A DNA stretch of 64,000 nucleotides from an uncultured bacterium (GCA_964588695.1 CAZPQK010000006.1:196239-260238); one strand, 5' to 3'; positions 29,020 through 60,916 are shown, counted from the stretch's first letter. The notes: generated from the sequence alone by a model not told the origin. Translations and numbers: made by a program.

Positions 29020-29661
29020 TTAGCCGTCAGTAACCTGGTCGTAGCGCGTCACCACTTCGATGGCTTCGCCGCGGGGCGGCGAAACCTTTGCCGTTACTTC
29101 CAGGCGACCGTTGTCGTCGATCGTAATCCACTGTGTAACTTCGGGGCGGCTTCCTCGGCGAGTCCGCAAGGTAAGTTTCAGGTCTTCCCATTTCGCCCAA
29201 ACTTCGCGCTCGCCTAGAAGCGTTTTGTACTTTCGCTTTTTCCCGTCGGGTATCACCGTCATTGTGTCACCTTTGGCGTAGACCATTCGAATATCTTCGT
29301 CGTTCTGAAGAATCACGATCTCACCAAATCGACCAAGCTGTTCCTGGAGACGCTTCGGATCTGGCGCTCCACCACCGGGCGGTCCGCCCATGCCTCCACC
29401 TCGTCCCGGCCGGCCCATTCCCCCACCCGGGGTACCACCCATTCCCCCGCCCGGCGGTCCGCCCATGCCTCCGTTCGGACCCTTTCCGCGCATGGATTTC
29501 ATTCGTTCTTCCATGATTGCGGCCGGGTCGTCACTCAACTCGGTGTTTATCTTCCAGTGGCCGGCAATATAAAGTCCGTCGGAAAAACCCGCTGCCTGGT
29601 TACTAACTACGATGGGGATGTACACGGACGTTGCCAGCAGTACGGCCAGAAATCTCTTCAT
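29020..29661 (-). CDS. Secreted protein with Gly/Met-rich repeat (GGMGGPPGGGMGGTPGGGMG...), hypothetical (possible metal-binding periplasmic protein)
   Basis: Signal peptide MKRFLAVLLATSVYIPIVVS. A 60-aa low-complexity tract with regularly spaced Met residues. Last gene of the ECF-sigma operon. Confidence 0.55.
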   Translation of the reverse strand: MKRFLAVLLATSVYIPIVVSNQAAGFSDGLYIAGHWKINTELSDDPAAIMEERMKSMRGKGPNGGMGGPPGGGMGGTPGGGMGRPGRGGGMGGPPGGGAPDPKRLQEQLGRFGEIVILQNDEDIRMVYAKGDTMTVIPDGKKRKYKTLLGEREVWAKWEDLKLTLRTRRGSRPEVTQWITIDDNGRLEVTAKVSPPRGEAIEVVTRYDQVTDG

Positions 29662-29672
29662 CGTAATGCTCT

Positions 29673-30614
29673 CTAGTGATGGCCTCGCGATGGCCACAAG
29701 CGTTCCAGCGAATTTAGCTTTTGCATCTGCTCGGCGGAAAGCGCGGCGGCGAGTTGCGATTGCGTCGCGTCGCGCAGTTCCTGATGGCGCACCTTGCGCT
29801 GACTTGGAGTGTTCTTGATTTCTTCCCGAAGCGCAGCACGTTGTTCCATCGCGTCGGCAAAGATGTTGGCCACTCGCGTCCGTTGGCCATCATCCAGTGC
29901 TAACGCGAGCGTCAGCAACTCCACATGCTTGTCCATGCGTTTTTCGGCGCGTTCGCCGTGTTTGGTATGACGCTTTTCCTTCATCGCCTTAATCGAAGCT
30001 TGTTGTTGCTCGGTCAACACGCCTGCCAGGTTGGCGTCGGTGGTTTCACGCAACTTCGTCATAGCTTCGTCGTATGCAGCGTCTCCCAATGCACCGTTCT
30101 TGTGCTGTTCGTTTAGCGACTTGCGTTGTGCCCGGGACGATTCACGAATCTCTTTAAGTGCCTGGCGCTGTTCTCCAGTGATGCCTAGCTCTTTGGCGGC
30201 GCGCATTTTTTTGCGCATGCCCATCTGCTTGCCGTGTCCTTTTGCCTTGTGCTGACGCCTGCGCTCGCTGCGCTTCTCTAGCACAACGTCGACGACACCG
30301 TCGAGTTGTTCGGGGCTAAGCACCGAAGAGGCCGTTGCCAGAAACGTCATGGCGCCGGTGTAGCGGCCCTTGCCGTCGCTGCCTTCGTTCCACGCAGCCA
30401 GTGCGGTCGACAGCGTAGCCGCCTGGTCTTCGTCCAAAGTAACCGCCGTCCTGATGTCGCCAAGCGACAGAACCGGTACCGCTTCTTCGACTTTGGGGGC
30501 GTCGTCCACGGCGAGAGGTTCTTCAGATAAACAGCCCCAGCTCGGGATCATCAGGACGGCGAGAATTGCTGCGGTCCGCAGCGGGCCGGTTTGCGTTGTC
30601 CATGCTTTAAACAT
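29673..30614 (-). CDS. Periplasmic Spy/CpxP/ZraP-like (LTXXQ-repeat) stress protein
   Basis: Start is chosen at the ATG with AAGGAAGG RBS. Signal peptide. Repeated LTxxQ-like motifs (LTEQQQASIKAM, LSAEQMQKL). Highly charged helical sequence. Confidence 0.6.
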   Translation of the reverse strand: MFKAWTTQTGPLRTAAILAVLMIPSWGCLSEEPLAVDDAPKVEEAVPVLSLGDIRTAVTLDEDQAATLSTALAAWNEGSDGKGRYTGAMTFLATASSVLSPEQLDGVVDVVLEKRSERRRQHKAKGHGKQMGMRKKMRAAKELGITGEQRQALKEIRESSRAQRKSLNEQHKNGALGDAAYDEAMTKLRETTDANLAGVLTEQQQASIKAMKEKRHTKHGERAEKRMDKHVELLTLALALDDGQRTRVANIFADAMEQRAALREEIKNTPSQRKVRHQELRDATQSQLAAALSAEQMQKLNSLERLWPSRGHH

Positions 30615-30681
30615 AAGTGTTCCTTCCTTGTGGCGAGCCGTTCTAACCGTTAGGACGCCTGTGTGTAACGCGACTTGCACA

Positions 30682-31149
30682 TTATTTTCGTGGACCAAAA
30701 CGCGGGCTAAAAACCGCCCGCAGAATCCGTTCGCGCTGCTCGGGCGTAATCTCACTGTCGACATCTAACAGTCGGTTGGTTGCACGTTTCGACATCTCCA
30801 AACGAACGCTCGCCATTTCTGTTAGTAACGAGTCAACTTCGGCCCTGGGAACCGGATCCATAAGCATCCGGTCGATGATTGCTTGCTCAAGGGTCTGAGT
30901 TCGATCGGTGAGGTCGGTTATATCGCTCCGAAACTCCCTCATTTCGCGCTTAATAATCGCTCGGTCCGTCGAGTCAAGTTTCGCCCAGCTTGACTTGCCA
31001 TGAGCGGTTTTGTCGAATCGCTTGCCGCGCCAGTGTTTTTCCATTGGCGGCGGCTTCTTTGTCATGTGGACGTATAAAAACGCGCCCAACGCCCCGACGT
31101 TCATGACCGTCAGAATAGTTAGCAGCGTTATTAGAACTCGACTTTTCAT
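30682..31149 (-). CDS. Periplasmic LTXXQ / CnrX-like sensor-accessory protein
   Basis: N-terminal TM/signal anchor. Helical charged sequence containing an LTEM...-type repeat. Start overlaps the anti-sigma stop by 4 nt. Confidence 0.55.
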   Translation of the reverse strand: MKSRVLITLLTILTVMNVGALGAFLYVHMTKKPPPMEKHWRGKRFDKTAHGKSSWAKLDSTDRAIIKREMREFRSDITDLTDRTQTLEQAIIDRMLMDPVPRAEVDSLLTEMASVRLEMSKRATNRLLDVDSEITPEQRERILRAVFSPRFGPRK

Positions 31150-31610
31150 GGGGTTTCCTCGTCAGGGTTGGTCCACTGCCCGGATCCATCGCCAAAGCCA
31201 GACTGTGACCACGCCGTGTAGTAGTCTTCGGCCAGCGTGTCGACATCGCTTATCTCAATAGCTGGCGCTGCGGTTTCGCGGGTGGCAATGGCGGCGTTGT
31301 ATCCAATCACGACGCCGATCAGCAACGCCGCCGTTACCATGCCACCCCCGAGTGCTAGTCGCATCCACGAAGGACGCGAACGGTGTGTTTTGTTGGCGAC
31401 TTCGCCAGCCTCAATTCGCGACGCCAAGTACGGGTCGGGTTCAAGCGAGGGGGCGGCAATGCGACCGTCGGCCAATGTGCGATCCAGAATGTCGAAACGT
31501 CGGGCGCACTGTGGGCAGTTCGCCAGGTGTGCCTTCACTTCCTGACGCTGCTCGGCAGAAAGCCGATCGTCGGTCCAGTCGACATATAATTTGGTTACGT
31601 GTTGTTCCAT
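31146..31610 (-). CDS. Anti-sigma factor (zinc-finger ZAS type) with one TM helix
   Basis: H-x3-C-x2-C motif HLANCPQCARRF near the N-terminus, then a single TM segment (LALGGGMVTAALLIGVVIGY) and a periplasmic tail. Confidence 0.7.
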   Translation of the reverse strand: MEQHVTKLYVDWTDDRLSAEQRQEVKAHLANCPQCARRFDILDRTLADGRIAAPSLEPDPYLASRIEAGEVANKTHRSRPSWMRLALGGGMVTAALLIGVVIGYNAAIATRETAAPAIEISDVDTLAEDYYTAWSQSGFGDGSGQWTNPDEETP

Positions 31611-31643
31611 GTGTTTGACTCAGCCCCGTCGGGTCGAGTGGGG

Positions 31644-32228
31644 TTAAAGTTCGTCTACAAGGTTTCCCAAGGCACTAACGAGTTGTTTCTTGGCGCGATG
31701 AATTCGTGCTTCGACCGCGGAAACCGACAACTCCATTGCGTCCGCTACTTCGCGGTACGACAGTTCTTCGTAGTAATGCAACACCAATGGTACTCGGTAC
31801 TTTGGACCCAACGTTTGAATCGCGGTCCACACCGCTCGCGACCGGGCGCGAACCTCAAGCGTCCTTTGGTGATTACTGTCGGCGTCGGTGACCGTCGGAT
31901 CGGCAATCACTTCGTTCAAGTCATCAAGCGGCCGGTTCTTTTGTAATGTGCGCTTCTCTTTGCGTAAATAACTAAGCGTGTGATTTACGGCTACGCGGTA
32001 AAGCCACGTGTAAACCTGAGACCGGCCGGCAAAGGTGTCCAGTCGTTTATAGACCTTAAGCCACACGTCTTGCGCCAGGTCTTCGGCAGTCTGAGCGTTT
32101 CCGGTCATCCGATATATGACGTTAAGCACCCGTGCACCGTAGGCCTGGTACAGGGCGTCAAAAGTCGCGTCGGTAGCCGCTCCCGACTCGCGATCGTGGG
32201 GGGCTGCTCCCGGATCGATCGAGCTCAT
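31644..32228 (-). CDS. ECF (sigma-70 family, RpoE-like) RNA polymerase sigma factor
   Basis: Region 2 (DLAQDVWLKVYKRLDTF...YTWLYRVAVNHTLSYLR) and region 4 (YREVADAMELSVSAVEARIHRAKKQL). Start is trimmed to the internal ATG (MSSIDP...) because the long upstream extension is Arg-rich nonsense. Confidence 0.8.
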   Translation of the reverse strand: MSSIDPGAAPHDRESGAATDATFDALYQAYGARVLNVIYRMTGNAQTAEDLAQDVWLKVYKRLDTFAGRSQVYTWLYRVAVNHTLSYLRKEKRTLQKNRPLDDLNEVIADPTVTDADSNHQRTLEVRARSRAVWTAIQTLGPKYRVPLVLHYYEELSYREVADAMELSVSAVEARIHRAKKQLVSALGNLVDEL

Positions 32229-32316: not shown

Positions 32317-32907
32317 TTAAGGGGTGGGCGCCCGGTCGACGACGATAAGGAACGGGACTCTCGAGGCCACGTCGGCCCGGTCGATACCCGTAACTTGCCT
32401 ACCCCCGGAAGCCGCGTTGAGTTCCACCGCCCAGGAGAGAACCGCTGCGGATTCAGCCGCACCGGCTTGATGGCCGGGGTAACAAACAATCGCGAGAATC
32501 CCATCTGGCCGCAGAGCCTCAACGGCCGATTCCAGCGCTCGCACCGTAGATTGTGCCTGCGTTGTAACGGTTTTGTCGGACCCGGGCAAGTAGCCAAGGT
32601 TAAACATGACCGCCGTCACTTGGCCGTGATGCGCGGGGTCGACCCAGGTGGCGATATGTTGGTGGCCTTGTTCGATGAATCGTACGTCGACCCCGGGCGC
32701 GTGCTCGGCGACGAGCGCGCGAGTATTAGCCAGCGCGGAGGGTTGTATGTCGCACGCGTACACGATGCCGGTCGACCCCACAAGCTCGCACAGAAAACGT
32801 GTGTCGTGGCCGTTGCCAGCGGTGGCGTCGACGACAATATCGCCCGGCCGGACACGCGCGGCAACGATGTCGTGGGATTGATGTACCACGCGGTTGCGAC
32901 CAATCAC
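32317..32907 (-). CDS. mnmM: tRNA (mnm5s2U34) methyltransferase MnmM (YtqB family)
   Basis: Near-colinear match to B. subtilis YtqB/MnmM from memory: GDIVVDATAGNGHDTRFLCELVGSTGIVYACDIQ...FNLGYLPGSDKTVTT. Confidence 0.7.
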   Translation of the reverse strand: MIGRNRVVHQSHDIVAARVRPGDIVVDATAGNGHDTRFLCELVGSTGIVYACDIQPSALANTRALVAEHAPGVDVRFIEQGHQHIATWVDPAHHGQVTAVMFNLGYLPGSDKTVTTQAQSTVRALESAVEALRPDGILAIVCYPGHQAGAAESAAVLSWAVELNAASGGRQVTGIDRADVASRVPFLIVVDRAPTP

Positions 32908-33902
32908 ATGAACCGTCCGACATCGAGTTCCGCGTCAAGGGCGGAGCCATCGGTTATGTGTTGGGCAAGCGCCCGCGCCACCGTGGGAGCCATTAACACG
33001 CCCTTCGATCCGAGTCCGTTCATGATACCGATATGGCGTTGGTTGGGGTGTAGGCCGCAAATTGGGCGACCGCCTTGAACGATCGGGCGCACGGCCGCCT
33101 GGTGGTCAATGACCTCGAAGGGAACGCGAAGCCAACGTTTTAGTCGGCCGACAATGTATTCGCGGGCCTGCGTGGTGGTTTTGGTATCACGCGCGTCCCA
33201 GTCGTAGGTAGCGCCAGCTCGAAAGATTCGTTCGCCAACCGGAAACAGCCAGACGCCACCGCGATTAAAAATCGCATCGGCAGGTAAATCGGAAACGGCA
33301 AGGGTAAGGATCTCGCCTTTTGCCGGCCGAAAAGGTATCCCGGGAAATCGGTCCGAAGCCGTCATTGCGACACCGTCACAAAACACGTTGAGCGCGTCGG
33401 GTAGGGGAGCGGTCACGCGCTGGGCGTGCCAGCAATCGGCGAAATAGTTTTGCGTGATTTCTATAAAACGCGCGACGTTGAGATGGCCCGCCAGGTGAGT
33501 CTCGAAAGAGCCGAACGTATTGTCGATCGTATTGGGTATAGGGGTTGAAGCTTCGCACAAACATGACTGGTACTCCTGTCGCGTGCGTCGGTCTTCCCAG
33601 AGCCTTGCTTGTCGTTCTGAATCGAAGAGTCTCACCAGTGGCTTTGGATAAAACAAGGTGGAGTCGGTATCGGTTTCGACATAACGATAGAACGCGGTCG
33701 CTTCGCGCCAGAATTCGACGAAACGCCAGCTTAGTGCGAGTCGAGGACCGGTGATTGGATTGATGATTCCAGCCGCAATCCGGGATGAGGTTGCGGGTTC
33801 GTTACTGTCGTAGATGTCAAAGTGCTGACCCCGCGCATGCAGTTGCCACGCGAGCGTGCACCCGGCAATGCCACCGCCAACAATAACAATCGGCTTGTTC
33901 AT
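32904..33902 (-). CDS. FAD-dependent oxidoreductase resembling the MnmC C-terminal (cmnm5s2U oxidase) domain
   Basis: Dinucleotide-binding start IVIVGGGIAGCTLAWQL. DAO-family size. The 4-nt stop/start overlap with mnmM implies translational coupling. Confidence 0.6.
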   Translation of the reverse strand: MNKPIVIVGGGIAGCTLAWQLHARGQHFDIYDSNEPATSSRIAAGIINPITGPRLALSWRFVEFWREATAFYRYVETDTDSTLFYPKPLVRLFDSERQARLWEDRRTRQEYQSCLCEASTPIPNTIDNTFGSFETHLAGHLNVARFIEITQNYFADCWHAQRVTAPLPDALNVFCDGVAMTASDRFPGIPFRPAKGEILTLAVSDLPADAIFNRGGVWLFPVGERIFRAGATYDWDARDTKTTTQAREYIVGRLKRWLRVPFEVIDHQAAVRPIVQGGRPICGLHPNQRHIGIMNGLGSKGVLMAPTVARALAQHITDGSALDAELDVGRFM

Positions 33903-33947: not shown

Positions 33948-34694
33948 CTACGATTTCGTGTCGTCTGATGGCGTGACCAGGCCAAAGATAGTTCCCGCGG
34001 GATCGGCCATTACCACCAGGTCGCCAATGCCATCGGCGTGCTCCAGAGGTACCTGTACGATCGCACCCAAGCGCCGGGCGCGCTCCATGTCTGCGCCGAC
34101 CGATGCCGTTCGAAAGTAAGGAATCCACGGATTGGGCGGAGAGTGAAAGGGAAGGTCGCGCAGAAACAATCGATCGACATCGTTGTCGTGCAGCGCGTAG
34201 CCGCGCGTGGTCTGTCGCGCCGCGAGCCCCAACGTGGCGGCGTAGAAATCGACAACCCGGCCGGGTGTTTCGGTCCACAGTTCGGCAGTATAGGGAGAGC
34301 CCGGTTGCGGTGGCCACTGGTCGTCGCTGTGGCGGCGGATAAGGGTTAGCCGATTGCCAACCGGATCTTCGATGTCGACCAGGTCGCCCCAACCGTCGTG
34401 CGAATGAAGTCCTTTACGCACGTTGCCGCCAATACGTGGGACCAACGATTCGGCGACGTCGACATCGGCGGACAGGTAAACGTTCCACTGTGACGGGGCG
34501 AACGCACCCATTGCCATAAACGAGTTGGCGAACTCGTACTTGCCATTGAACCAAAGCGGCATGATGCCCCATGGGTCCATGTGCATGGCGCGCGAAGTCC
34601 ACAAGAACAAGTCGCGGTAAAAATTATCGGCAATTAACGAGCGGGGAGTGTTGAGTTCAAGCCACCCGATCGCTCCGGGAAAATGGTTGGGCAT
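33948..34694 (-). CDS. VOC-family (glyoxalase/bleomycin-resistance fold) protein
   Basis: Two-module beta-alpha-beta(3) pattern, about 248 aa. Weak motif-level assignment. Confidence 0.5.
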   Translation of the reverse strand: MPNHFPGAIGWLELNTPRSLIADNFYRDLFLWTSRAMHMDPWGIMPLWFNGKYEFANSFMAMGAFAPSQWNVYLSADVDVAESLVPRIGGNVRKGLHSHDGWGDLVDIEDPVGNRLTLIRRHSDDQWPPQPGSPYTAELWTETPGRVVDFYAATLGLAARQTTRGYALHDNDVDRLFLRDLPFHSPPNPWIPYFRTASVGADMERARRLGAIVQVPLEHADGIGDLVVMADPAGTIFGLVTPSDDTKS

Positions 34695-37066: not shown

Positions 37067-37378
37067 GTTATTTCAGCAGTACCATTTTGCGCGTGCGCAC
37101 AAAGTCGCCGGCGACAAGTCGGTAAAAGTACACTCCGCTGGACACCTGGGTGCCGGCGTTGTTGGTACCGTCCCACGTAATCGGCGCGACTTGTGCGGGA
37201 GTTTGCACCTGGTCAACTAACGTCCGCACCAGTTGTCCGCTTACGTTGTAAACCTTCAGTTGCACGTGCGCGCGATTTGCGAGCGAGTAACTGATAGTCG
37301 TCGTCGGGTTGAACGGGTTCGGATAGTTCTGTGTCAGTTCGTTGACCCGAGGTGCGCTCGGCGGCGTCGACACCGGGA
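37067..37378. repeat. 312-bp perfect direct repeat, copy 1 (3' end of T9SS cargo gene A)
   Basis: Identical base-for-base to 40198..40509. Identity breaks sharply at both ends. Confidence 0.9.
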
Positions 37379-40130
37379 CAATGTGCGCAAGGTACATCAT
37401 GACATCGCCTAAGTGGTCAATGTAGTCGGGGATAGGCGCTGGATGGTCGTCGTAAATCGCGCTGGCGGCAAACCCTCCCAATACCACACGAGCCTGGTAC
37501 CCGTTGGGATTGAGCGTCTCTTGGACAGCTACTGCTCCTCCGCCTCCGACGTAACTAGCGACCATCGTCATACTGCCCGGATCGGTGATCACATCAAATC
37601 CACCTTCTCCAGTCCAGGCGTTGGATAAGGTCAGGCAAGCCCCATCGACGTTCATAGAATCGCCATGAAACAACGATCCCGGTGCGCCAAGAATGAGAGG
37701 ATTCAGCGCGATGCCTTCCGCCGTGTGACTTCCCGACGTTCCTCCAAAATCGATGTATTTGTTTTTGAGTTGGCTGGCGCTAATCGACCCAAGAATTTCG
37801 AGGCCGCTGGGAAGCTCATTGCCTAGAAGGTAAAGTCCAACGTTTCCGGTTGCGTTTTCCAGAAAGCTGAACAATATGCCGGTGTCGTCGGTGTCTTCCG
37901 GGTTGCCATCACCGTCGCCCATAATGCGCGCCTGATTTCCAGTACTCCAGACAATACAGTCGTAAGCGGAATTAAGTTGGTTTGCGACGTTTACGACAGT
38001 TCCGCCCAATCGATTGTTGTTGTAGTTGTCTGACCCGCGAACGTCATAGCGATCCACAGTCGGAGAAAGCGCGATGTGGTCAAAGGCGGCGTCGATAACA
38101 GCCTGCTCGCCAAAGGTGTGAGCGCCGTCTACATAGAGCACGTTCGCAGTTCCAGTCGGTAAACAAGTGAACTCGTCCGCGCCCGCCGCGGCCGTGGCAA
38201 AGTCGTCGGTGACACCCGACTCCAAACCCCAATAAGTCACTTCGCCGATCGAGTTGGTTGCGCCAAAGAAAAACTTAACCGTGTCGCCCGGTGTAAACAA
38301 ATTGTCGTTGAGGTCTGCGCAGAACGTTCGGTCCTGGGGGTTGCCCACAATGTTGAATGATGTGTCCATTTGGATCACCGCCCAATCGATACCGCCCGCC
38401 GAGCCCGTACCTTGATACGGCCATCGCGGACCGCCGGACAACGCCGCGCCCGACTTGCCGGCTTGACCCTGCGGACACACCGCCGCGTAAAGAAAAACTG
38501 CGGCCGCCCCGCTTCCGGTAGTTCCCAATCCGTGTTCGGTGTCGAAAACTTCGACGACGACAGAGTCGCCGAACAGAATAGGGTTAAAGGATTGAGAAAT
38601 GTCGGTTCCCATGTCAGCTCGAACCGTTCCCGTGATGGTGCCGTCGCCAGGAAAGCTGTCCTGAAACAGCCTGGCGTCGTTAATGGTCCACTGGGGCCCG
38701 TTGCCGTCGAAGCGGATGATGCTGACGTTGTCGAACATCGGAGCGTGCGAGTGACACGTGCCGGGTCCGAAGGTTCCGCACCAAACATTACATAAGTCGA
38801 CGACGCCGAGAGCAACTTGCACATCCGTGGCGCCCTGCTCAATCAGGTCTCCAATCGGGAACGATTGGCGAGACCAGTCCTTTTGTGCCCCGTAAAAGAC
38901 AAAGCCGTTGTCTTCCCACTGACCGGGACAGCCGTCTACAATCGAGCGCACGTGCCACACCCAGAACACTACGTTTCCTAGCGGGAGATCACGGTACACG
39001 TCAAACTGTAGCTCCATGGATTCGCCGGATCCGATTAGCGGCACGGCTGGCGACCAGATCTCGTTATTTATAAACAACGGGGTGCCGGAAAGCACACCAG
39101 GGCCCTCGGTGCCGAAGGGCACCACTTCCTGGCCGGGAAAATTGTTGCCACCGCAGTCATATACGTAGCCCGAACCTTCGAAGAACCCCCATATACACGA
39201 GATGTTGCTGGTACAAAAGTCTTCGCTGACCGCCTGCGTGCCGGGGAACAGAGACGCGAATGTGCCGAACGCCTGCCGCGATGAAGCTTCCCAATTGTCT
39301 GCCGACATATCGCCAACCGATTCGTCTTCGAAGTCATCAAACGGAAGCCCGGGCCCGACGGTTGCGGTTACTCCGATGTCGTCGACAATAAACGCACCGT
39401 CTGTTTGCCACAGGCCGTCCTGGTCCGACCAAGCCCCATCACTCGTGAAGCGAAAGCGCAGGTCAACCTGTCCGCCGTGTAGCGAGTCCGGGATTGCGAC
39501 GGTAACAGTGTCCGTTCCGAAAAAGCCCCACGCCGCATCGAAATTAAGTGACGTATTGCCAACGCCGAGGTTGATCCAGTTCTCGGCTGGGTCAGTCGCG
39601 TCATCAACTTCCAAAAACGTAAAGTCGTAGCCGGGCTCGGAGTCGTAGTGAATCGCAAACGAGAGCGTTAACCCAGTGCCAACCGCCGGTGATGAGGTTG
39701 TTAGAAATTGCTGCCACCGGTTGCCATAGCCCGGCAATGTCGCGTAACCGCAAAGAACAGGGTCGGCCGGGTTTGGCGCCAAGCCACACCACATTGCTTG
39801 GTTACCACCGGGTGCAAACAGCAACCCGTTGTAGCCGCCGCCGAGTCCTGCGAAGTCATCCACGTGCGTATAGATGCCTTGGGCGGTTAGGTCTTGAGCG
39901 GTCCAACCCTGGGCATCGCATCCTTCGAAATCCCACGAGGCAACCCATGTGGTGTCGGGGGCAGCACGCATTGTTTTACCAAATGGCGATGGGCCGCTGT
40001 CCAACGATCGCACCAACGGTGTCGATGCTTCGCGCGGCGTTCGGGTTTCTTTGGCGCGCAAGTCGTTAGGTTTTGCCACGAAAACGACAAGGCCAACCAT
40101 TGTGGCGCTAAGTACAAGCTTCTTAGTCAT
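37068..40130 (-). CDS. Large secreted T9SS cargo protein (paralog A) with type-A C-terminal sorting domain
   Basis: Start is trimmed to MTKKLVLSATMVGLVVFVAKP (signal peptide); the upstream extension lies in the repeated CTD DNA of the neighbouring gene. C-terminal QNYPNPFNPTTTISYSL...GVYFYRLVAGDFVRTRKMVLLK. Confidence 0.8.
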   Translation of the reverse strand: MTKKLVLSATMVGLVVFVAKPNDLRAKETRTPREASTPLVRSLDSGPSPFGKTMRAAPDTTWVASWDFEGCDAQGWTAQDLTAQGIYTHVDDFAGLGGGYNGLLFAPGGNQAMWCGLAPNPADPVLCGYATLPGYGNRWQQFLTTSSPAVGTGLTLSFAIHYDSEPGYDFTFLEVDDATDPAENWINLGVGNTSLNFDAAWGFFGTDTVTVAIPDSLHGGQVDLRFRFTSDGAWSDQDGLWQTDGAFIVDDIGVTATVGPGLPFDDFEDESVGDMSADNWEASSRQAFGTFASLFPGTQAVSEDFCTSNISCIWGFFEGSGYVYDCGGNNFPGQEVVPFGTEGPGVLSGTPLFINNEIWSPAVPLIGSGESMELQFDVYRDLPLGNVVFWVWHVRSIVDGCPGQWEDNGFVFYGAQKDWSRQSFPIGDLIEQGATDVQVALGVVDLCNVWCGTFGPGTCHSHAPMFDNVSIIRFDGNGPQWTINDARLFQDSFPGDGTITGTVRADMGTDISQSFNPILFGDSVVVEVFDTEHGLGTTGSGAAAVFLYAAVCPQGQAGKSGAALSGGPRWPYQGTGSAGGIDWAVIQMDTSFNIVGNPQDRTFCADLNDNLFTPGDTVKFFFGATNSIGEVTYWGLESGVTDDFATAAAGADEFTCLPTGTANVLYVDGAHTFGEQAVIDAAFDHIALSPTVDRYDVRGSDNYNNNRLGGTVVNVANQLNSAYDCIVWSTGNQARIMGDGDGNPEDTDDTGILFSFLENATGNVGLYLLGNELPSGLEILGSISASQLKNKYIDFGGTSGSHTAEGIALNPLILGAPGSLFHGDSMNVDGACLTLSNAWTGEGGFDVITDPGSMTMVASYVGGGGAVAVQETLNPNGYQARVVLGGFAASAIYDDHPAPIPDYIDHLGDVMMYLAHIVPVSTPPSAPRVNELTQNYPNPFNPTTTISYSLANRAHVQLKVYNVSGQLVRTLVDQVQTPAQVAPITWDGTNNAGTQVSSGVYFYRLVAGDFVRTRKMVLLK

Positions 40131-40197
40131 GCGAACTCCCGGTAAAAAGTTAGCAATGTGACCGTTGCCGTCGCAACAGCCGCTGATGTTCGAGAAT

Positions 40198-40509
40198 GTT
40201 ATTTCAGCAGTACCATTTTGCGCGTGCGCACAAAGTCGCCGGCGACAAGTCGGTAAAAGTACACTCCGCTGGACACCTGGGTGCCGGCGTTGTTGGTACC
40301 GTCCCACGTAATCGGCGCGACTTGTGCGGGAGTTTGCACCTGGTCAACTAACGTCCGCACCAGTTGTCCGCTTACGTTGTAAACCTTCAGTTGCACGTGC
40401 GCGCGATTTGCGAGCGAGTAACTGATAGTCGTCGTCGGGTTGAACGGGTTCGGATAGTTCTGTGTCAGTTCGTTGACCCGAGGTGCGCTCGGCGGCGTCG
40501 ACACCGGGA
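40198..40509. repeat. 312-bp perfect direct repeat, copy 2 (3' end of T9SS cargo gene B)
   Basis: Identical to 37067..37378. Confidence 0.9.
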
Positions 40510-43270
40510 TCGAATGCGACAGGTAGTCCATCACGTCGCGAACGTGGTCGACGTAGTCTGGTGTCGGAGCGGGTTTGTCGTCGACAATATGGCTAATGGC
40601 AAAGCCACCCAACACAGTTCGGACCGGTTGCCCGTTGGGGTTCAGAGTCTCCTGTGTCAATACAGCGCCGTCCGCACCCTCATAGCGTGCGGCCACGACC
40701 GACGCTCCGGTAGCGTCGAGGACGTCAAAGCCTGCGCCCTCCCCCCAGCCCGCGTAAATGTTCAGACAGCTCCCATCGGCCATCAGGGTATCGGGCATGC
40801 CGCCGTGTTCAAAGATGCGCCCCGGCTCGCCGACGATCGTCGGTGACACGGGGAGACTTGTTTCCAGGTGGCTCCCGTCGGTTAGCGAGAAATTAAAATA
40901 CTTGTTTCTTAGCAATGTCGCCGATGCGCCACCGAGAGCGTCGAACGCTTCCGCAAAGTTGTCGCCGACCAGGTAGATGCCCCCTGGATTTGTTGCGTTC
41001 TCCAAGAACTCGTACAACACCTGCGTGTCATTGGTCTTTTCCGGGTTGCCGGTTCCATCGCCGAATCCGCGGTTGATGGTTCCGGTGCTCCACACGATGC
41101 AGTCGTACACCGAGTTGAGCTGCGCGGCGACATCGGAGATGTGGTAACCCAGGCGGTTATCGTTGTAGCCGTCGGACCCGCGAACGTCAAAGCGGTCGTA
41201 GGCAACGTGCGCAATGCCCGGCTCCAGGAACGGTTGGTCGCCGAAGGTGTGATCGCCGTCTACGTACAGCACCGACGCGTTGCCGGAAGGCAGGCAGGTC
41301 ACTTCGTCCGAGCCAAGCGCCGCGATCATCATGTCATCGGTCGTTCCCGATTCGATCCCCCAATAGGTGCGCTGACCTTCGGTGTTCTCTGCGCCGAAGA
41401 AAAACTTCACTTCGTCACCGGGCGTGAACAGGTTGTCGTTGAGGTCGACACAATACACGTCGGACAGCGCGCCGGTCCGGCTCGCGCTGTTGGTGAAAGC
41501 GGTGTCGACGCGCAGACACGTCCATTCTTCCGAGTCAATGGTCACGGTGCCGACGACCGGAAAGCGGAAGCTGTCTTGCGTCATAGCGCTGCCCGACTTG
41601 GGGGCTTGGGCGGGTTCCACCCGAGCGTACAAGTAAACGGCGGGGCCAAACCCGGTAAATGGGTCGCCCGCAAGCGCGTGCTCTTCGTCGGACACCGCAA
41701 CAACCGCCGAGTCGCCCAGCAGGATATTGGGACTGCTGCCGGACAGGATGTCGGCGCCCATGTCCATGCGGACCACACCGGTGGTTGTACCGTCGTCGGC
41801 GAAGCTATCCTGAAACAGAGTGCGGTCGGTGATTCTCCACTGCGGACCGTTACCGTCGAACCGAATGATGGACACGTTGTCGAACAGCGGACCAAAACTA
41901 TGACATGCACCGGTGCCGTAGATACCGCACCACGCGAAACACATGTCGATCACGCCCAGGCGGACTTGAACTTCGGCTGGCGTTGGAATTAACAAGTCGC
42001 CCACAGGTTGAACGTGACGACGCCACCGTGGGTTGGGGCCGTAGTACACAAAGTTGCGGTCGAGCCAAGGCATCGGGCAGAACCCGTTCCGTCCACGAAC
42101 CGACCAGGTAAAGAAAATGAGGTTGGTGAGTGGTAAGTCTTCGTAGACATCGAAGTGGAGTTCCCAGGACGCGCCGGCACCTGCGACGGTCACCCACGGC
42201 GAAACCAGTTCCTGATCGATGCCCGGTTCGAACGCGGGCGCAAACGGCACCACTTCTTGTGCCGGAAAGTTGTTTCCGCCGCACGTATAAAAGCTTCCCG
42301 AGCCCGCAAAGAATCCCCACATGCAGGAGATATTGCTGACGCAGTCGTCTTGAAACGGAGTCGATAGTGCGGGGAAGAGTGTTGAGAAGTCTCCAAAGCC
42401 AGGGTCGGCGGAGCCTTCCCAATCGTCGGCTACGGTGCTACCGACGGCCTCGCCTTCGAAGTCTTCCAGCGCAAGACCGGCGCCCGCGGCGGCGGTAACT
42501 TCGATGTCGTCGACGATGAATGCGCCGTCGGTGTCCCATAGCCCGTCTTCGTCGGACCATGCCCCGTCGCTAGTAAACTTAAAGTGCAGGTTCACCGCTC
42601 CGCCGTGCACCGAGTCGGGAATCGAAACGCTAATGGTGTCGGTACCCGTTCCTTCCCACGCCATACTCGGATGGGGGGAGATTGGTGTTGTGCCGACACC
42701 AAGGTTGATCCAGTTTTCGGATCCGTCGGTTGCGTCGTCGAACTCCAGGACGGTACGGTCGTACCCGGGTTCCGAGTCCCAGTGGAACGCAAACGACACG
42801 GTAAGCCCGGTGCCGCTGGCCGGGGATGACGTCGACAAATACTGCTCCCACCGATTGCCGTAACCCGGTAATGACGCGTAGCTGCAAATATACAGATCGG
42901 AGGTGTCGGGTCGTGCGCCACACCACATTGCCTGGTTGCCGTTAGGGGCTACCAGCAGACCGTTGATGCCACCGCCGAGGCCGGCGAAATCGTCGATGTG
43001 CGTGAAGATAGCGTAAGGTGCGGAGTTGTCTACCACCGTCCATCCTTGCGCGTCGCATCCTTCAAAGTCCCAAGAACCAATAACGGTGGTGTCAGGCATG
43101 GCCCGCCGCGCGGCCGGCAGCGGCGAGCTGTCCAACGATCGCTTTAGCCACGTTGGGGTTTCCTTTGGCGTGCGGACTTCTTTTGCAAGCGGTGCGTTCG
43201 ATGCACAAACGATCGTAAACACGATAACGGCAAACGCCATCGCAGCTACGGAACTACGACCGGGAATCAT
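40199..43270 (-). CDS. Large secreted T9SS cargo protein (paralog B) with identical C-terminal sorting domain
   Basis: Signal peptide MIPGRSSVAAMAFAVIVFTIVCASNA. Colinear with paralog A (both start WDFEGCDAQGWT...) at roughly 60-70% identity, but the last 103 codons are nucleotide-identical. Confidence 0.8.
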   Translation of the reverse strand: MIPGRSSVAAMAFAVIVFTIVCASNAPLAKEVRTPKETPTWLKRSLDSSPLPAARRAMPDTTVIGSWDFEGCDAQGWTVVDNSAPYAIFTHIDDFAGLGGGINGLLVAPNGNQAMWCGARPDTSDLYICSYASLPGYGNRWEQYLSTSSPASGTGLTVSFAFHWDSEPGYDRTVLEFDDATDGSENWINLGVGTTPISPHPSMAWEGTGTDTISVSIPDSVHGGAVNLHFKFTSDGAWSDEDGLWDTDGAFIVDDIEVTAAAGAGLALEDFEGEAVGSTVADDWEGSADPGFGDFSTLFPALSTPFQDDCVSNISCMWGFFAGSGSFYTCGGNNFPAQEVVPFAPAFEPGIDQELVSPWVTVAGAGASWELHFDVYEDLPLTNLIFFTWSVRGRNGFCPMPWLDRNFVYYGPNPRWRRHVQPVGDLLIPTPAEVQVRLGVIDMCFAWCGIYGTGACHSFGPLFDNVSIIRFDGNGPQWRITDRTLFQDSFADDGTTTGVVRMDMGADILSGSSPNILLGDSAVVAVSDEEHALAGDPFTGFGPAVYLYARVEPAQAPKSGSAMTQDSFRFPVVGTVTIDSEEWTCLRVDTAFTNSASRTGALSDVYCVDLNDNLFTPGDEVKFFFGAENTEGQRTYWGIESGTTDDMMIAALGSDEVTCLPSGNASVLYVDGDHTFGDQPFLEPGIAHVAYDRFDVRGSDGYNDNRLGYHISDVAAQLNSVYDCIVWSTGTINRGFGDGTGNPEKTNDTQVLYEFLENATNPGGIYLVGDNFAEAFDALGGASATLLRNKYFNFSLTDGSHLETSLPVSPTIVGEPGRIFEHGGMPDTLMADGSCLNIYAGWGEGAGFDVLDATGASVVAARYEGADGAVLTQETLNPNGQPVRTVLGGFAISHIVDDKPAPTPDYVDHVRDVMDYLSHSIPVSTPPSAPRVNELTQNYPNPFNPTTTISYSLANRAHVQLKVYNVSGQLVRTLVDQVQTPAQVAPITWDGTNNAGTQVSSGVYFYRLVAGDFVRTRKMVLLK

Positions 43271-55966: not shown

Positions 55967-56335
55967 ATGAGGGGATACATGATTACCTCCACAACCAGCG
56001 ATGCTGCCGCCATGGAGACGATTGGGAAGCGACTGGCCCGCTACCGACTAAACCGGAACCTCACCCAAAAGCAGCTGGCGCGCGAGGCCGGCGTGTCGGT
56101 GCCGACGGTCCAACGATTGGAGGCCGGGAACTCCGTGCAACTGGACACATTAATCGGTGTGCTCCGCGCGCTCGACCTGCTGGCCAATCTGGAGGCGATG
56201 GTGCCGGAGCCGCCGGTGAGTCCGCTGCAACAACTCGAGTTGGATGGCAAACGGCGGCAACGCGGAACCGGCAGTCGTGGTCGCAAAGAACAGTCGAAGG
56301 AAGACACCCCGTGGACGTGGGGCGATGAGTCATGA
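55967..56335 (+). CDS. hipB: HipB-like XRE-family HTH antitoxin
   Basis: HTH LTQKQLAREAGVSVPTVQRLEAG. An alternative start at 55979 has a GAGGGG RBS. Overlaps the hipA start by 4 nt. Confidence 0.75.
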   Translation: MRGYMITSTTSDAAAMETIGKRLARYRLNRNLTQKQLAREAGVSVPTVQRLEAGNSVQLDTLIGVLRALDLLANLEAMVPEPPVSPLQQLELDGKRRQRGTGSRGRKEQSKEDTPWTWGDES

Positions 56336-57630
56336 CGGTCGCAAGTGTACGACTTTGGGGGCGCACTATTGGTGCGGTCAGTTGGGATGCTGATCGGCGA
56401 CTGGGCAACTTCGAATACGTGGATGCCTTTCAGCGAAGCGGGATCCAAGTCGCGCCGCTAACAATGCCACTCTCGGACCAGATCTTCTCGTTTCCGGCGT
56501 TGGCTCCGGAGACCTTTCGCGGCTTACCGGGTCTGCTTGCCGACTCGCTCCCCGACAAGTTTGGTAATGCTGTTATCGATGCATGGCTCGCGCGCGAAGG
56601 CAAAGACATCGGCGCGTTTACGCCGGTCGAACGGCTGTGTTACGTGGGAACTCGCGGTATGGGCGCGCTTGAGTTTGAGCCCGCCTTGGGTCCGCCGCGT
56701 GACGACGACGCATTGCTGGAAGTGGCGTCGTTGGTCGAGCTGGCCGGTGAGATTCTCGCCGAGCGCGAAGGGTTGCAAGCATCTTTCGACGAGCCGGATC
56801 GCGAGCAGGCGCTGCGTGATATTCTAAGTGTGGGAACTTCGGCCGGCGGCGCACGCGCCAAGGCTATTATCGCGTGGAACCCCGACACCAACGAGGTTCG
56901 CTCAGGACAGGTAGCAGCGCGCCCGGGTTTTGCCCATTGGTTGTTGAAATTCGACGGAGTGCATGGCGACCGCGACCGCGAACTGGATGTGCCCCGTGGC
57001 TACGGCCAGATCGAGTATGCCTATTACTTGATGGCGAAAGCCGCTGGCGTGGAGATGAGCGAGTGTCGATTGTTAACCGAAGGGAATCGTCGTCACTTTA
57101 TGACTCGCCGCTTCGACCGCACCAAAGGCGGAGAGAAAGTTCACATGCAGACGCTAGGCGCGCTGGCTCATTTCGATTTCAATCGTGCCAATGCCTATGC
57201 CTACGAGCAAGTGTTTCAACTGATGCGACGGCTGTCGCTGCCGGTGGAGCAGATCGAGCAGATGTTTGTGCGAATGGTTTTTAATGTGATCGCGCGCAAT
57301 CAGGACGACCACGTTAAGAACGTAGCGTTTCTTATGGACAAGGCCGGGCGTTGGCGGCTATCGCCAGCTTACGACGTGACGTTTGCCTATAACCCCAACG
57401 GACCATGGACTGCGCAGCACCAGCTGAGTCTTAACGGTAAGCGTGACGACTTTGCCGTGACCGACCTGGAAGCGGTCGCCGACTTTGCCTCACTACGGCG
57501 AGGTTTCGCCCGGGATACGTTGGAGCGGGTTCAAGAGGCGACGGAGCGCTGGCCGGACTTCGCCGACCAGGCGGCGGTGACGTCAAAGTTTCGCGGCGAA
57601 ATCGGAAAGTCAATTCGCCGGCTGGTGTGA
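56332..57630 (+). CDS. hipA: HipA-family serine/threonine kinase toxin
   Basis: HipA N-terminal coupling region (LWGRTIGAVSWD) and C-terminal kinase core (ARNQDDHVKNVAFL...LSPAYDV). Confidence 0.8.
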   Translation: MTVASVRLWGRTIGAVSWDADRRLGNFEYVDAFQRSGIQVAPLTMPLSDQIFSFPALAPETFRGLPGLLADSLPDKFGNAVIDAWLAREGKDIGAFTPVERLCYVGTRGMGALEFEPALGPPRDDDALLEVASLVELAGEILAEREGLQASFDEPDREQALRDILSVGTSAGGARAKAIIAWNPDTNEVRSGQVAARPGFAHWLLKFDGVHGDRDRELDVPRGYGQIEYAYYLMAKAAGVEMSECRLLTEGNRRHFMTRRFDRTKGGEKVHMQTLGALAHFDFNRANAYAYEQVFQLMRRLSLPVEQIEQMFVRMVFNVIARNQDDHVKNVAFLMDKAGRWRLSPAYDVTFAYNPNGPWTAQHQLSLNGKRDDFAVTDLEAVADFASLRRGFARDTLERVQEATERWPDFADQAAVTSKFRGEIGKSIRRLV

Positions 57631-57802: not shown

Positions 57803-60800
57803 ATGAGCAAGCGCCGTTGGGCGCGCGCAGCGTGCTCGTTTTTGGTTCTGGCGACGACGTTGTTGACCACGACGTCGGTTTGGGGAGATAGCACGACTGG
57901 TCGACCGGTTAAGCACTACGACAGTCCAACGCGGATTGTGGATGGGACGCCGCGCACGGTGACTGTTTCTCCCGAACAGGAAGCGGCGCTTCGTGCGCAC
58001 GTCGTTCGCTACCGTCCTGATCATCCCTTGCTAGCTCGAAATCACAAACGGCCCGCTGGCGACGGGTCCGCCCGTGGTCGTGAACTTTCGTCGACGCCCG
58101 GCCTGGAGAGTGCGCCGTTACAGCGCCCCGGGTTTCCAGATCTGTACCACTCGACAGCAAAGGGAGACGAAGGTCCGCAGCGAAGCCTGACGTCGGTGCT
58201 GGATGAAGCGGGGATGCTAGTGGACGCAGGCGGCGACGATGTGGAAGTAGCGAGCACCGAAAATACCGCGCCCCTTTTGGCAATCACATCTGGCGGCGAA
58301 TACCTCCTGGCGGTAAGGAATGTCTCATCGGTGGCGGTTTACAAGTCGTCTGACGGGGGCGAAAGCTGGACGCTGTGGAGTACCTTCTCCGATGCCAGTG
58401 GATTGCTCTTCGGAGCTGCGATGACCATCGGTGAGGGTACCAACAACCGCATCTTTCTGGCGTACACCAACACCACTGGCGACGATCAGGTTCATGTGGC
58501 CTACGCGGACTTTACCGTTGCTTCGCCAACCTGGGTGGTCGTGACCGCCCTTGCGAACGCGGGTGTCGACCACGGGAAGTTTGGACGGTTGTCCATTGAT
58601 ACCGACTACGAAAACTTCACGTCTTACTACGTCTACGTTGCCGCGTTAGGCGACGACGGTAATGGCGACGACATTTGGTTCGCTCGTTCCACCGATCGGG
58701 GCGGCTCTTACGCCCCCGGTTACCGCGTTTTGGATTCAGCTACGAGTTCTTACGATTCGTTCGACAGTCCCTACATAGCGTTCGGCGCCGGGAACTACGT
58801 TCATCTGGGAGCGAATGCGGATTACACGACAACCGGCACTGTTACCGATGTCATCCACGCGCGCGCGTTGGGTTGGGCCGGCAGTGGGCTTGCCAGTTGG
58901 GAAGCGCCAACGGTAATTAGTGCCGGGACCGTTTCCGCCGACCATCTGCTTGGTTCGCTGGGCGCGGACACCAACTTCGGTACGGTTGTGTTCGCGATGA
59001 CGAACTTCGACGGTTCGCCGTTTCGCGATTGGGTGAGTGTTTCAACCAACTATGGCACGGCCTTTGGTGGTCTGGTCGAGTCGGGGTTGGACAACTCGCC
59101 GGGGAAGATTGTGTTTTCGACGAGCGGCGATATTGTGATGGCGGGGGTGGAAGTAGGGGAGTACTGGCCACCCTTTAACCAGGTGCAGTTGGTAAGGTCA
59201 ACGTTGGCGGCGCCGACGACTTTTACCGCTCCGGCCACGTACACCCGAACCATCTGGGATGCGGGAACTTTACCGCGAGTGTACGGCCTGGCGTTGGATC
59301 CCACACGCGGAGAGCAACCGGCGATCGCGTGGACGGCCTCGGTTGACCCCGACTATACCGTTCGTTTCGACGCCGAATGGCGTCGCGACCCCGGCTATGC
59401 CAATACCGAAGTCGGCTTTCCGCTGGCTGTGACTGGTGGCGGTCATACGCCCCCCGCGATTGCCGAAGTCGACGGCGATCCGGAAAAAGAGATCGTGTTC
59501 GCGACGATCTCGGGTGACGTGCATGTAGTCAATCACGATGGAACCACGGTTCCGGGTTGGCCGGTGAACATAGGGCAGATCGCGTTCGATACACCGGTAG
59601 CGGTTGGCGATTTGATTGGTAATGGTAACAACACGATTGCGGTCGGTAACGGGTTTGGCGAAGTGTACGCTTTTAACGGCGACGGCGCCGTCCTGCCTGG
59701 GTTCCCGGTGCAACTCGATGATACCAATTTTGTGCATGTTTCGATTGGCGCGTTGGGTCCTCCCAATCGCCGGTACATTGTTGCGATGGCGGGACACGAT
59801 ATAAAAGTACTCAACTATCAGGGAATAAATATGGCGCCAGCGCTCGGTGACTTTGTTAACAACGCTATCGGACCGGCGGCCATCGGGGATGTCGACAACG
59901 ACGGCGAGATGGAGATCGTGACCTCGCGCAACAATTGGTTCCACGTGCTCACCCGCAGTGGCGGTGTTAAATCTTTTCGCAATGTGTTTGGCGAGCAGGT
60001 AACCGGCCCGCCAGCTCTTGCCGATCTCGATTCTGACGGCGACCTGGAGATTGTTATTCCAAGTGTGGACGGCAGCGGCAGTCGCATGTACGTAATGAAT
60101 CACGATCTCACAGACTATCCCGGATTCCCGGCGGTAATTGCCTCGGGTGCGTCCCTAACCAGCGCTTCGCTTGCGAACATTATTAGTGGCGGCGAACCGG
60201 AGATTATCTTTGCCGAGCGTGACGGATCGGGGAACGTGCACATGTTTCGTTCCGACGGAACCGAGCCCAGTTGGTTCCCGGTTAATGTCGGCCCGTCTTT
60301 TATTTTTACGCCGCCGGCAATCGACATCGTGCATCAGTTTCCCTCACAGATTGTCACCGCGACGCGTGCCAATGTAGGTTATTCGTACACCAACTTTGGC
60401 GTAGATTCACCGGGTTGGCCGCGCAACTTGAATGGTGTTATCGAAGAGACGCCAGCAATTGGCGACATCGACAACGACGGACGTAACGAAGTCGTTATGC
60501 TGGGAGCCAACGAGCTTCGGGTGCTAGACACCGGGGCCGCGCCGCACGGCAGCGACGTTTACAGTTGGAGGATGTTTCAGAATGACGCCGCGCGTACCGG
60601 TTGTTGGAACTGTGAAGACGTGATAACTGCCGTTGGTGATGCTCCGTCGCCGCGCACGGACGAGCGGTTGGACGTGTATCCCAATCCCTTTAACCCGACG
60701 ACGAACGTGTCGTACCAGGTTGCGGCGGAGGGTAAGGTGCGCGTCGCGCTTTATGACGTTAAGGGTCGGCAGGTTGACGTGCTTGTCGACGGCGTTGTAC

Positions 60801-60916
60801 AGCCGCCGGGCAACTATCGGGTGACGTACTCGCCGCGACTTGCAAGTGGTGTCTACTTCTTGCGGATGGAATCTGCGAGTGGCGCGATTACCCGAAAGAT
60901 CCATTTACTCAAGTAG
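57803..60916 (+). CDS. Large secreted BNR(Asp-box) + FG-GAP/VCBS-repeat beta-propeller protein with T9SS C-terminal sorting domain
   Basis: Signal peptide. Asp-box SSDGGESWT. At least five FG-GAP-like repeats (EVDGDPEKEIVF, IGDVDNDGEMEIV, ADLDSDGDLEIVIP, IGDIDNDGRNEVV). C-terminal VYPNPFNPTTNVSY...GVYFLRM...IHLLK. Confidence 0.8.
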   Translation: MSKRRWARAACSFLVLATTLLTTTSVWGDSTTGRPVKHYDSPTRIVDGTPRTVTVSPEQEAALRAHVVRYRPDHPLLARNHKRPAGDGSARGRELSSTPGLESAPLQRPGFPDLYHSTAKGDEGPQRSLTSVLDEAGMLVDAGGDDVEVASTENTAPLLAITSGGEYLLAVRNVSSVAVYKSSDGGESWTLWSTFSDASGLLFGAAMTIGEGTNNRIFLAYTNTTGDDQVHVAYADFTVASPTWVVVTALANAGVDHGKFGRLSIDTDYENFTSYYVYVAALGDDGNGDDIWFARSTDRGGSYAPGYRVLDSATSSYDSFDSPYIAFGAGNYVHLGANADYTTTGTVTDVIHARALGWAGSGLASWEAPTVISAGTVSADHLLGSLGADTNFGTVVFAMTNFDGSPFRDWVSVSTNYGTAFGGLVESGLDNSPGKIVFSTSGDIVMAGVEVGEYWPPFNQVQLVRSTLAAPTTFTAPATYTRTIWDAGTLPRVYGLALDPTRGEQPAIAWTASVDPDYTVRFDAEWRRDPGYANTEVGFPLAVTGGGHTPPAIAEVDGDPEKEIVFATISGDVHVVNHDGTTVPGWPVNIGQIAFDTPVAVGDLIGNGNNTIAVGNGFGEVYAFNGDGAVLPGFPVQLDDTNFVHVSIGALGPPNRRYIVAMAGHDIKVLNYQGINMAPALGDFVNNAIGPAAIGDVDNDGEMEIVTSRNNWFHVLTRSGGVKSFRNVFGEQVTGPPALADLDSDGDLEIVIPSVDGSGSRMYVMNHDLTDYPGFPAVIASGASLTSASLANIISGGEPEIIFAERDGSGNVHMFRSDGTEPSWFPVNVGPSFIFTPPAIDIVHQFPSQIVTATRANVGYSYTNFGVDSPGWPRNLNGVIEETPAIGDIDNDGRNEVVMLGANELRVLDTGAAPHGSDVYSWRMFQNDAARTGCWNCEDVITAVGDAPSPRTDERLDVYPNPFNPTTNVSYQVAAEGKVRVALYDVKGRQVDVLVDGVVQPPGNYRVTYSPRLASGVYFLRMESASGAITRKIHLLK

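Follow-up and report, generated by a model that had tools for sequence, protein, structure and literature searches.

How bacteria convert cmnm5s2U to mnm5s2U outside the Proteobacteria, which use MnmC, and the Firmicutes, which use MnmL plus MnmM, is only partly mapped. The genes mnmM and mnmC are largely mutually exclusive, and an MnmC(o)-like partner of MnmM was left unassigned (Cho et al. 2023). In Firmicutes that partner is the radical-SAM protein MnmL (Jaroch et al., bioRxiv 10.1101/2023.12.21.572861). Here we consider a 64,000-nucleotide stretch of DNA from an uncultured bacterium, hereafter called the window, in which a gene for a free-standing FAD-dependent oxidase overlaps a methyltransferase gene. 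Do the two enzymes act in consecutive steps on the tRNA wobble base, and is the oxidase a demodifying partner of MnmM?

Both open reading frames lie on the minus strand and meet in a 4-nt overlap, as the preliminary description of this locus had reported (Table 1). The oxidase ends with a TGA stop codon at 32904-32906, and the GTG start codon of the methyltransferase gene (32907-32905) overlaps the final codon and stop of the oxidase; the junction reads TTC ATG TGA TTG. A Shine-Dalgarno-like GGACGG lies 8-13 nt 5' of this GTG. An in-frame GTG at codon 7 offers an alternative start, with which the overlap would become a 14-nt gap. We prefer the first GTG because it gives the best N-terminal alignment with Bacillus subtilis MnmM, and because homologous loci are most often spaced in this way, with a 4-nt overlap in 12 of 45 (see below). 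The overlap suggests that translation of the two genes is coupled.

Table 1. Features of the oxidase-methyltransferase gene pair, numbered from the first nucleotide of the window
Feature	Coordinates	Strand	Basis or remark
Stand-alone FAD-dependent oxidase, 332 aa, DAO superfamily, glycine-oxidase/MnmC1-like fold	32904..33902	(-)	ATG start
MnmM (YtqB-type) SAM-dependent tRNA nm5s2U34 methyltransferase, 196 aa	32317..32907	(-)	GTG start
GTGA overlap, 4 nt, oxidase stop codon/MnmM start codon	32904..32907	(-)	Sequence
GGGIAG dinucleotide-binding (FAD) motif, oxidase residues 9-14	33861..33878	(-)	G9, G11 and G14 invariant in family alignment
Oxidase Arg272 (AAVRP motif)	33087..33089	(-)	Family-invariant; aligned residues: E. 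coli MnmC Arg567, B. subtilis ThiO Arg302
MnmM active-site residues N103, Y106, K112, Y143, G145, H146	32470..32601	(-)	Alignment of 73 MnmM sequences
MnmM D35	32803-32805	(-)	Alignment of 73 MnmM sequences

Two observations bear on whether the arrangement is genuine. First, an identical methyltransferase sequence occurs on an independent Logan contig, again with an upstream gene overlapping by 4 nt and an ECF sigma gene downstream; the oxidase/MnmM arrangement is therefore no accident of assembly. Second, the C-terminus of the oxidase falls where those of the sub-clade's 24 other stand-alone proteins fall, a match that rules out a fusion gene split by a frameshift. Opposite-strand open reading frames within the oxidase/MnmM interval are without homology support, and a scan for promoters and terminators of an operon gave no signal above shuffled background.

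The pair is surrounded by a VOC/glyoxalase-like gene, a DUF4153 gene, an ECF sigma factor, an anti-sigma factor and a periplasmic stress-type operon. We considered the upstream VOC/glyoxalase-like gene as a third member of the module, possibly for aldehyde handling, and rejected it, as no homologue is present in any related locus. Proteins with T9SS tails in the window hint at a T9SS-bearing lineage of FCB type.

The downstream methyltransferase

The methyltransferase scores 188.5 bits against NCBIfam NF053511, the MnmM equivalog (cutoff 135), in a full-length match that aligns its residues 6-191 with profile positions 2-181 of 183. Against Pfam PF06962 it scores 128.7 bits; 'putative rRNA methylase' is the historical Pfam name of this YtqB/MnmM family. 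Among proteins of solved structure it comes closest to B. subtilis YtqB/MnmM (PDB 4pon, 8h0s; E 4e-40) and Staphylococcus aureus MnmM, both of them crystallised and assayed enzymes.

The residues on which catalysis depends are largely retained. Cho et al. (PMC9976899) identified the residues of B. subtilis MnmM that bind the flipped-out U33/U34 and transfer the methyl group: mutants of K11, D34, N101, Y104, K110, Y141 and H144 lost all activity, and mutants of the U35 contacts Q163 and Q176 kept 20-60%. In an alignment of 73 sequences, D35, N103, Y106, K112, Y143, G145 and H146 of the window protein correspond to B. subtilis D34, N101, Y104, K110, Y141, G143 and H144, so that all seven tested positions, comprising the catalytic Asn and the residues that recognise U33/U34, are kept. 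The counterpart of B. subtilis K11 is His12; most of the aligned proteins (58 of 73) likewise carry His there. Only the two U35 contacts, Q163 and Q176, are not conserved.

Because it passes the equivalog cutoff, conserves the catalytic residues and is close to B. subtilis YtqB, we accept the gene, on these sequence grounds, as a bona fide MnmM. Neither the window nor any of the 82 related loci described below yielded a DUF752/MnmC(m)-type methyltransferase in a tblastn search of low sensitivity with E. coli MnmC as query. The preliminary assignment of the downstream gene to MnmM rather than to MnmC(m) is thereby borne out, and the link to rRNA methylases comes down to the old Pfam label of the MnmM family. 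The description of this MnmM as Firmicutes-like has to be dropped, since its nearest relatives, at 40-53% identity, come from the PVC group and Firmicutes alike.

Family and descent of the oxidase

The oxidase matches Pfam DAO (PF01266) over residues 5-314 with 94.5 bits. Its Arg272 stands in the place of ThiO Arg302, by which that enzyme binds the carboxylate of its substrate. The protein also matches the MnmC-conserved positions G518, R567, G578 and G619, and a glycine-oxidase-like FAD fold is present. The residues invariant in MnmC have been tabulated (Kim and Almo, PMC3648344 Table 2), and these positions do not discriminate between the oxidase families.

Profile scores do not place the protein in either named family. 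Against TIGR03197 (MnmC_Cterm) it reaches 62.6 bits (cutoff 174.2), with the match confined to the FAD-binding N-terminus at residues 5-84, and five of its relatives score 42-64 bits. Against the bifunctional MnmC model PRK01747.1-1 it reaches 48.7 bits (cutoff 540), and against the ThiO equivalog TIGR02352 79.8 bits (cutoff 250.8). A profile built from 23 stand-alone relatives gives 59-73 bits for glycine oxidases in the PDB and 35-41 bits for MnmC. An AlphaFold model of the oxidase (pLDDT 93.4) retrieved CmiS2, glycine oxidases, iminodiacetate oxidase and sarcosine oxidases in Foldseek. By HMM and fold scores, the oxidase is as close to the glycine oxidases as to MnmC(o), or slightly closer.

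This fold would suit a demodifying enzyme, because relatives of the glycine-oxidase type turn an N-substituted glycine into an amine and glyoxylate, as removal of the carboxymethyl group of cmnm5U requires. Kim and Almo (PMC3648344) had noted the homology of MnmC1 to glycine oxidase and the analogy between the reactions of the two enzymes.

We placed the family in a rough neighbour-joining tree (Kimura-corrected distances, 200 bootstraps, a single SoxB outgroup) that sampled 24 of its members, three Bacillaceae ThiO/glycine oxidases and seven MnmC(o) domains, from E. coli, another enterobacterium, Aeromonas, Pseudomonas aeruginosa, Legionella, Ralstonia and Piscirickettsia. The diverse MnmC(o) sequences were taken from PLSDB records; when E. 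coli MnmC(o) was the query of a protein search, every match was an enterobacterial MnmC of 71-100% identity. The oxidase family was monophyletic in 100% of replicates, as was MnmC(o), with the window family outside it. The oxidase family and MnmC(o) formed a clade in 93-100% of bootstraps, and the oxidase family and the glycine oxidases/ThiO did so in 0-2%, which tentatively suggests a clade that is sister to MnmC(o) and not to ThiO. The sister placement may be a rooting or long-branch effect, since mean identity among the oxidase family, MnmC(o) and the glycine oxidases is ~18% and the glycine oxidases share 22.7% with the single outgroup. Judged by sequence, then, the oxidase is neither a canonical MnmC(o) nor a ThiO, and belongs to a well-conserved clade of glycine-oxidase-fold enzymes of its own.

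This clade is found mainly in Verrucomicrobiota, Planctomycetota and Hyphomicrobiales, and its stand-alone members are annotated only as 'FAD-dependent oxidoreductase' or 'glycine oxidase'. The sub-clade to which the window oxidase belongs is free of fusions and comprises 25 stand-alone proteins, all of them short at 320-342 aa. The two closest homologues of the window oxidase are 49% and 47% identical to it. A tblastn search of PLSDB plasmids with the window oxidase gave no match.

The preliminary description had called the enzyme a free-standing, MnmC C-domain-like oxidase of Proteobacterial type. It is indeed a free-standing FAD oxidase, and a tie to MnmM finds support below; a Proteobacteria-like MnmC orthologue it is not, having failed TIGR03197. 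In the neighbour-joining tree it neither groups with ThiO (0-2%, as against 93-100% for MnmC(o)) nor nests within MnmC(o).

Could the oxidase nevertheless be a glycine oxidase of the ThiO type, which makes iminoglycine for the thiazole of thiamin and lies beside MnmM by chance? We consider this highly improbable. Its score falls far below the ThiO cutoff (79.8 against 250.8 bits), it is only 16-20% identical to ThiO, CmiS2 and the iminodiacetate oxidase IdaA, and it stands in a separate clade of the neighbour-joining tree, with ThiO joining its family in 0-2% of bootstraps. The context differs as well: ThiO is found among thi genes, as in the thiE-thiO-thiS-thiG-thiF-thiD cluster of a genuine thiO in Cytobacillus, whereas the window oxidase adjoins MnmM, with none of thiS, thiG, thiE or thiF nearby. 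Moreover, repeated fusion to MnmM and tight synteny with it across phyla, both described below, cannot be incidental.

A second alternative concerns the substrate. The pair might act on a different xm5U derivative, on some other RNA base with an N-substituted glycine side chain, or on a small N-carboxymethyl amine that is then N-methylated. Such a role would be in keeping with a clade distinct from MnmC(o), with the varied N-carboxymethyl amines on which same-fold relatives act (CmiS2, IdaA and the phage N-alpha-glycinylthymidine lyase 8z79), and with the loss in the window MnmM of the residues equivalent to Q163 and Q176. Loss of the U35 contacts is tolerated, however, given the 20-60% activity of the B. 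subtilis mutants (PMC9976899), and the window MnmM keeps all the U33/U34-binding and catalytic residues and passes a curated equivalog model. In addition, cmnm5(s2)U is the simplest substrate that would yield a primary amine for MnmM. We judge another substrate to be unlikely, and take cmnm5(s2)U34 as the predicted one.

Fusion and synteny with MnmM

The relatives of the oxidase show how it is associated with MnmM. Seventeen of its 120 best relatives (37-49% identity) are proteins of 540-572 aa that combine DAO with PF06962. In these fusions the oxidase is N-terminal and MnmM C-terminal, which is the gene order of the window and the reverse of the domain order in E. coli MnmC; in each of three fusions tested, the MnmM domain scored above the equivalog cutoff. 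One fusion, MDB5306425.1, bears the NCBI name 'bifunctional tRNA (..s2U34)-methyltransferase/FAD-dependent cmnm5s2U34 oxidoreductase'. The window oxidase is 37-42% identical to the oxidase domains of the fusions and shares a 100%-supported clade with them.

Beyond the fusions, a scan of species-representative genomes confirmed at least 546 relatives of the oxidase. We examined synteny at 82 loci, namely the best 80 of these relatives and two others, drawn from Verrucomicrobiota, Planctomycetota, Hyphomicrobiales and other groups. MnmM is fused or downstream at 49 of the 82, as a separate same-strand gene in 46 and as a fusion in 3. Spacing could be measured in 45 of the split pairs, and in 33 of them the genes overlap or lie at most 30 nt apart: 21 overlap, 12 of these by exactly 4 nt, the commonest spacing, and another 12 are separated by 0-30 nt. 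The remainder are spaced by 31-150 nt (nine pairs) or farther (three). All eight downstream partners tested passed the MnmM cutoff, and the two closest homologues of the window oxidase show the same oxidase-MnmM layout.

The linkage is not obligatory, since 27 or more of the 82 loci lack an MnmM up to a distance of ~4 kb. In total 33 loci showed no MnmM in the DNA examined, several of these loci being incomplete. Where no MnmM adjoins the oxidase gene, clustering of the neighbouring genes revealed no alternative conserved partner.

Such loci bear on a third alternative, in which MnmM works alone on nm5s2U from the MnmEG ammonium route proposed for Chlamydia, and the oxidase has an accessory or unrelated redox role and merely shares the transcript. 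Organisms that combine MnmM alone with the ammonium route have been predicted (Jaroch et al., bioRxiv 10.1101/2023.12.21.572861), and the 27 or more oxidase loci without an adjacent MnmM could be read the same way. That the two domains are covalently joined in many genomes argues instead for consecutive steps on one substrate. The fold of the oxidase and its conserved arginine, presumed to bind carboxylate, also fit the removal of a carboxymethyl group, and we regard action of MnmM by itself as quite improbable.

Recurrent fusion and conserved synteny thus support a functional tie between the oxidase and MnmM, and of the evidence that genome sequences can give on this point we regard it as decisive.

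A predicted route to mnm5(s2)U34

Comparison with characterised systems sets the pair apart from each of them. E. coli MnmC (PDB 3awi, 3ps9) is a bifunctional protein that unites MnmC(m)/MnmC2 with MnmC(o)/MnmC1, whereas the window encodes two separate proteins. The methyltransferase of MnmC is N-terminal, an order reversed in the window genes, and it belongs to DUF752 (PF05430), which is unrelated to the PF06962 family of the window MnmM. Its oxidase is ~17-19% identical to the window oxidase, which fails the TIGR03197 and PRK01747 cutoffs, and the methyltransferase that takes the next step after MnmC(o) is MnmC(m), where the window oxidase adjoins MnmM. The B. subtilis operon of MnmL (YtqA) and MnmM (YtqB) has the same MnmM and follows the same logic of a demodification enzyme plus MnmM. 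There, however, the demodification partner is the oxygen-sensitive radical-SAM enzyme MnmL; in the window it is a putative O2-dependent flavin oxidase, and a flavin oxidase in place of MnmL implies an aerobic version of the route.

The published MnmC1-MnmM ('MnmC1-YtqB') fusions of Planctomycetota, Verrucomicrobiota and Zetaproteobacteria share with the window pair the same two families, the same oxidase-then-MnmM order and the same predicted function. They differ in being one polypeptide, whereas the window pair is made as separate polypeptides from overlapping genes. In its Data S4a, the preprint of Jaroch et al. (bioRxiv 10.1101/2023.12.21.572861) lists 27 such fusions, among them entries of 428-590 aa; Fuerstiella marisgermanici (A0A1P8WME9), a Zetaproteobacterium, Planctomycetaceae and Opitutae are represented. 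Their taxa, lengths and architecture identify them with the fusions found here. The preprint predicts, pending validation, that MnmC1 plus MnmM converts cmnm5s2U to mnm5s2U. Our locus is the unfused form of this published, predicted route, and the concept is unchanged, because the fused form and its interpretation had already been published. The CDD-based census in the same preprint found no MnmC1 in Planctomycetes and described MnmC1 as 'always fused'. A census that scores the enzyme in this way has missed the stand-alone form, which is the commoner one in the loci sampled here (46 split against 3 fused).

The functional part of the preliminary description, a flavin oxidase followed by MnmM, was largely right. 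Its picture of a mosaic of two lineages, with a Proteobacterial oxidation step and a Firmicutes methylation step, gives way to an old, widely conserved two-gene module, whose oxidase forms its own clade and whose MnmM is not specific to Firmicutes.

Combining these observations, we think it likely that the pair is a bicistronic module for the completion of mnm5(s2)U34 at the wobble position of tRNA. MnmE and MnmG would first install cmnm5 using glycine. Neither mnmE, mnmG nor mnmA was found within the 64-kb window, and all three are presumably encoded elsewhere in the genome. Next, cmnm5(s2)U34, an N-substituted glycine, would be oxidised at its N-CH2-COOH bond by the free-standing FAD oxidase; the imine product would hydrolyse to nm5(s2)U34 and glyoxylate, and the flavin would be re-oxidised by O2. 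Finally, MnmM would methylate the freed amine with SAM, giving mnm5(s2)U34. The 4-nt overlap of stop and start codons would keep both enzymes co-expressed, as fusion would in other lineages. The function put forward for the oxidase is a prediction by guilt by association.

MnmC(o) needs O2, and 59% of 1,322 genomes, mostly from aerobes, lack both MnmC and MnmL when scored by KEGG orthology (2026 YhcC preprint). This under-annotated clade of oxidases may close part of the gap. We see an even chance that the stand-alone oxidases represent a separate, anciently diverged lineage of tRNA cmnm5(s2)U-demodifying flavoenzymes, which works as a free protein with MnmM and has been missed by KEGG, CDD and TIGRFAM censuses. 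If so, many Verrucomicrobiota, Planctomycetota and Hyphomicrobiales, and possibly Bacteroidota, lineages at present scored as lacking both MnmC and MnmL, would owe their 'missing' aerobic demodification step to it. In this locus and its relatives the predicted third combination, a flavin oxidase with MnmM, is encoded mostly by two separate, tightly linked genes. Recognition of the stand-alone oxidase would improve the annotation of tRNA modification in PVC, FCB and alphaproteobacterial genomes, and these small, soluble proteins are candidates with which the predicted route could be tested biochemically for the first time.

Genes flanking the oxidase–MnmM pair

In the window, a gene encoding a glyoxalase/VOC-fold protein lies on the same strand 45 nt 5' of the oxidase gene; because none of the related loci encodes a homologue, it is probably not a member of the module. 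Directly 3' of MnmM, after an 88-nt gap, an ECF sigma factor gene opens what looks like an envelope-stress cluster, continuing with a zf-HC2 anti-sigma factor, a Metal_resist (Spy/CpxP-like) protein, an LTXXQ protein and a Gly/Pro-rich protein, with no evident tie to the tRNA module.

Further from the pair, two adjoining paralogues carry near-identical C-terminal FlgD_ig/Por_Secre_tail (type IX secretion) domains. Together with a third, T9SS-dependent protein, they suggest a source organism of an FCB-type lineage that is equipped with type IX secretion.

Features of the window and small ORFs of related loci (L-numbers)
Feature	Position	Strand	Remark
tRNA-His(GTG)	22529-22604	+	sole tRNA gene of the window
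Envelope-stress-like cluster	29020-32228	-	
ECF sigma factor	31644-32228	-	
VOC-fold protein	33948-34694	-	248 aa
Type IX-tailed paralogue	37068-40307	-	about 1000 aa
Type IX-tailed paralogue	40199-43270	-	about 1000 aa
HipA-family toxin-like ORF	56332-57630	+	weak
M6-like protein	57803-60916	+	T9SS-dependent
Small basic ORF	L001:3777-4004		
Small basic ORF	L085:1-282		
Small basic ORF	L086:1257-1502		

Oxidase genes without a neighbouring MnmM

Linkage to MnmM is not universal. In about one third of the oxidase loci, MnmM was not found within about 4 kb (L010, L012, L018, L028, L032, L034, L035, L038, L041, L043, L044, L048, L049, L054, L062, L067-L069, L073, L075, L076, L078 and others), and the genes around these oxidases showed no conservation. 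Prosthecobacter, Isosphaera/Singulisphaera, and Saprospiraceae and Sphingobacteriales MAGs are among them. The oxidase in such genomes may have an unlinked MnmM as its partner; in Bacteroidota, that partner may instead be MnmC2 (the methyltransferase half of MnmC) as a separate protein.

Separately, a Piscirickettsia salmonis plasmid (NZ_CP038209, L094:1250-2655) appears to hold a degraded or split mnmC copy: a 43-aa remnant annotated "MnmC family methyltransferase" precedes an ORF for canonical MnmC(o) that stands alone.

A small basic ORF upstream of the oxidase

In the Verrucomicrobiales-type loci nearest the window oxidase, the oxidase gene is directly preceded by a conserved ORF for a basic product of about 75 aa with the motif LTHKQV.KAR.GR..T.R.QK. 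It recurs in L004, L005, L014 and L049 besides the three tabulated loci, at a distance of at most about 100 nt, and in those three it overlaps the oxidase start. The ORF has no Pfam match and no counterpart in the window. Within this Verrucomicrobiales-type sub-clade, it may be a third component of the module or its regulator.
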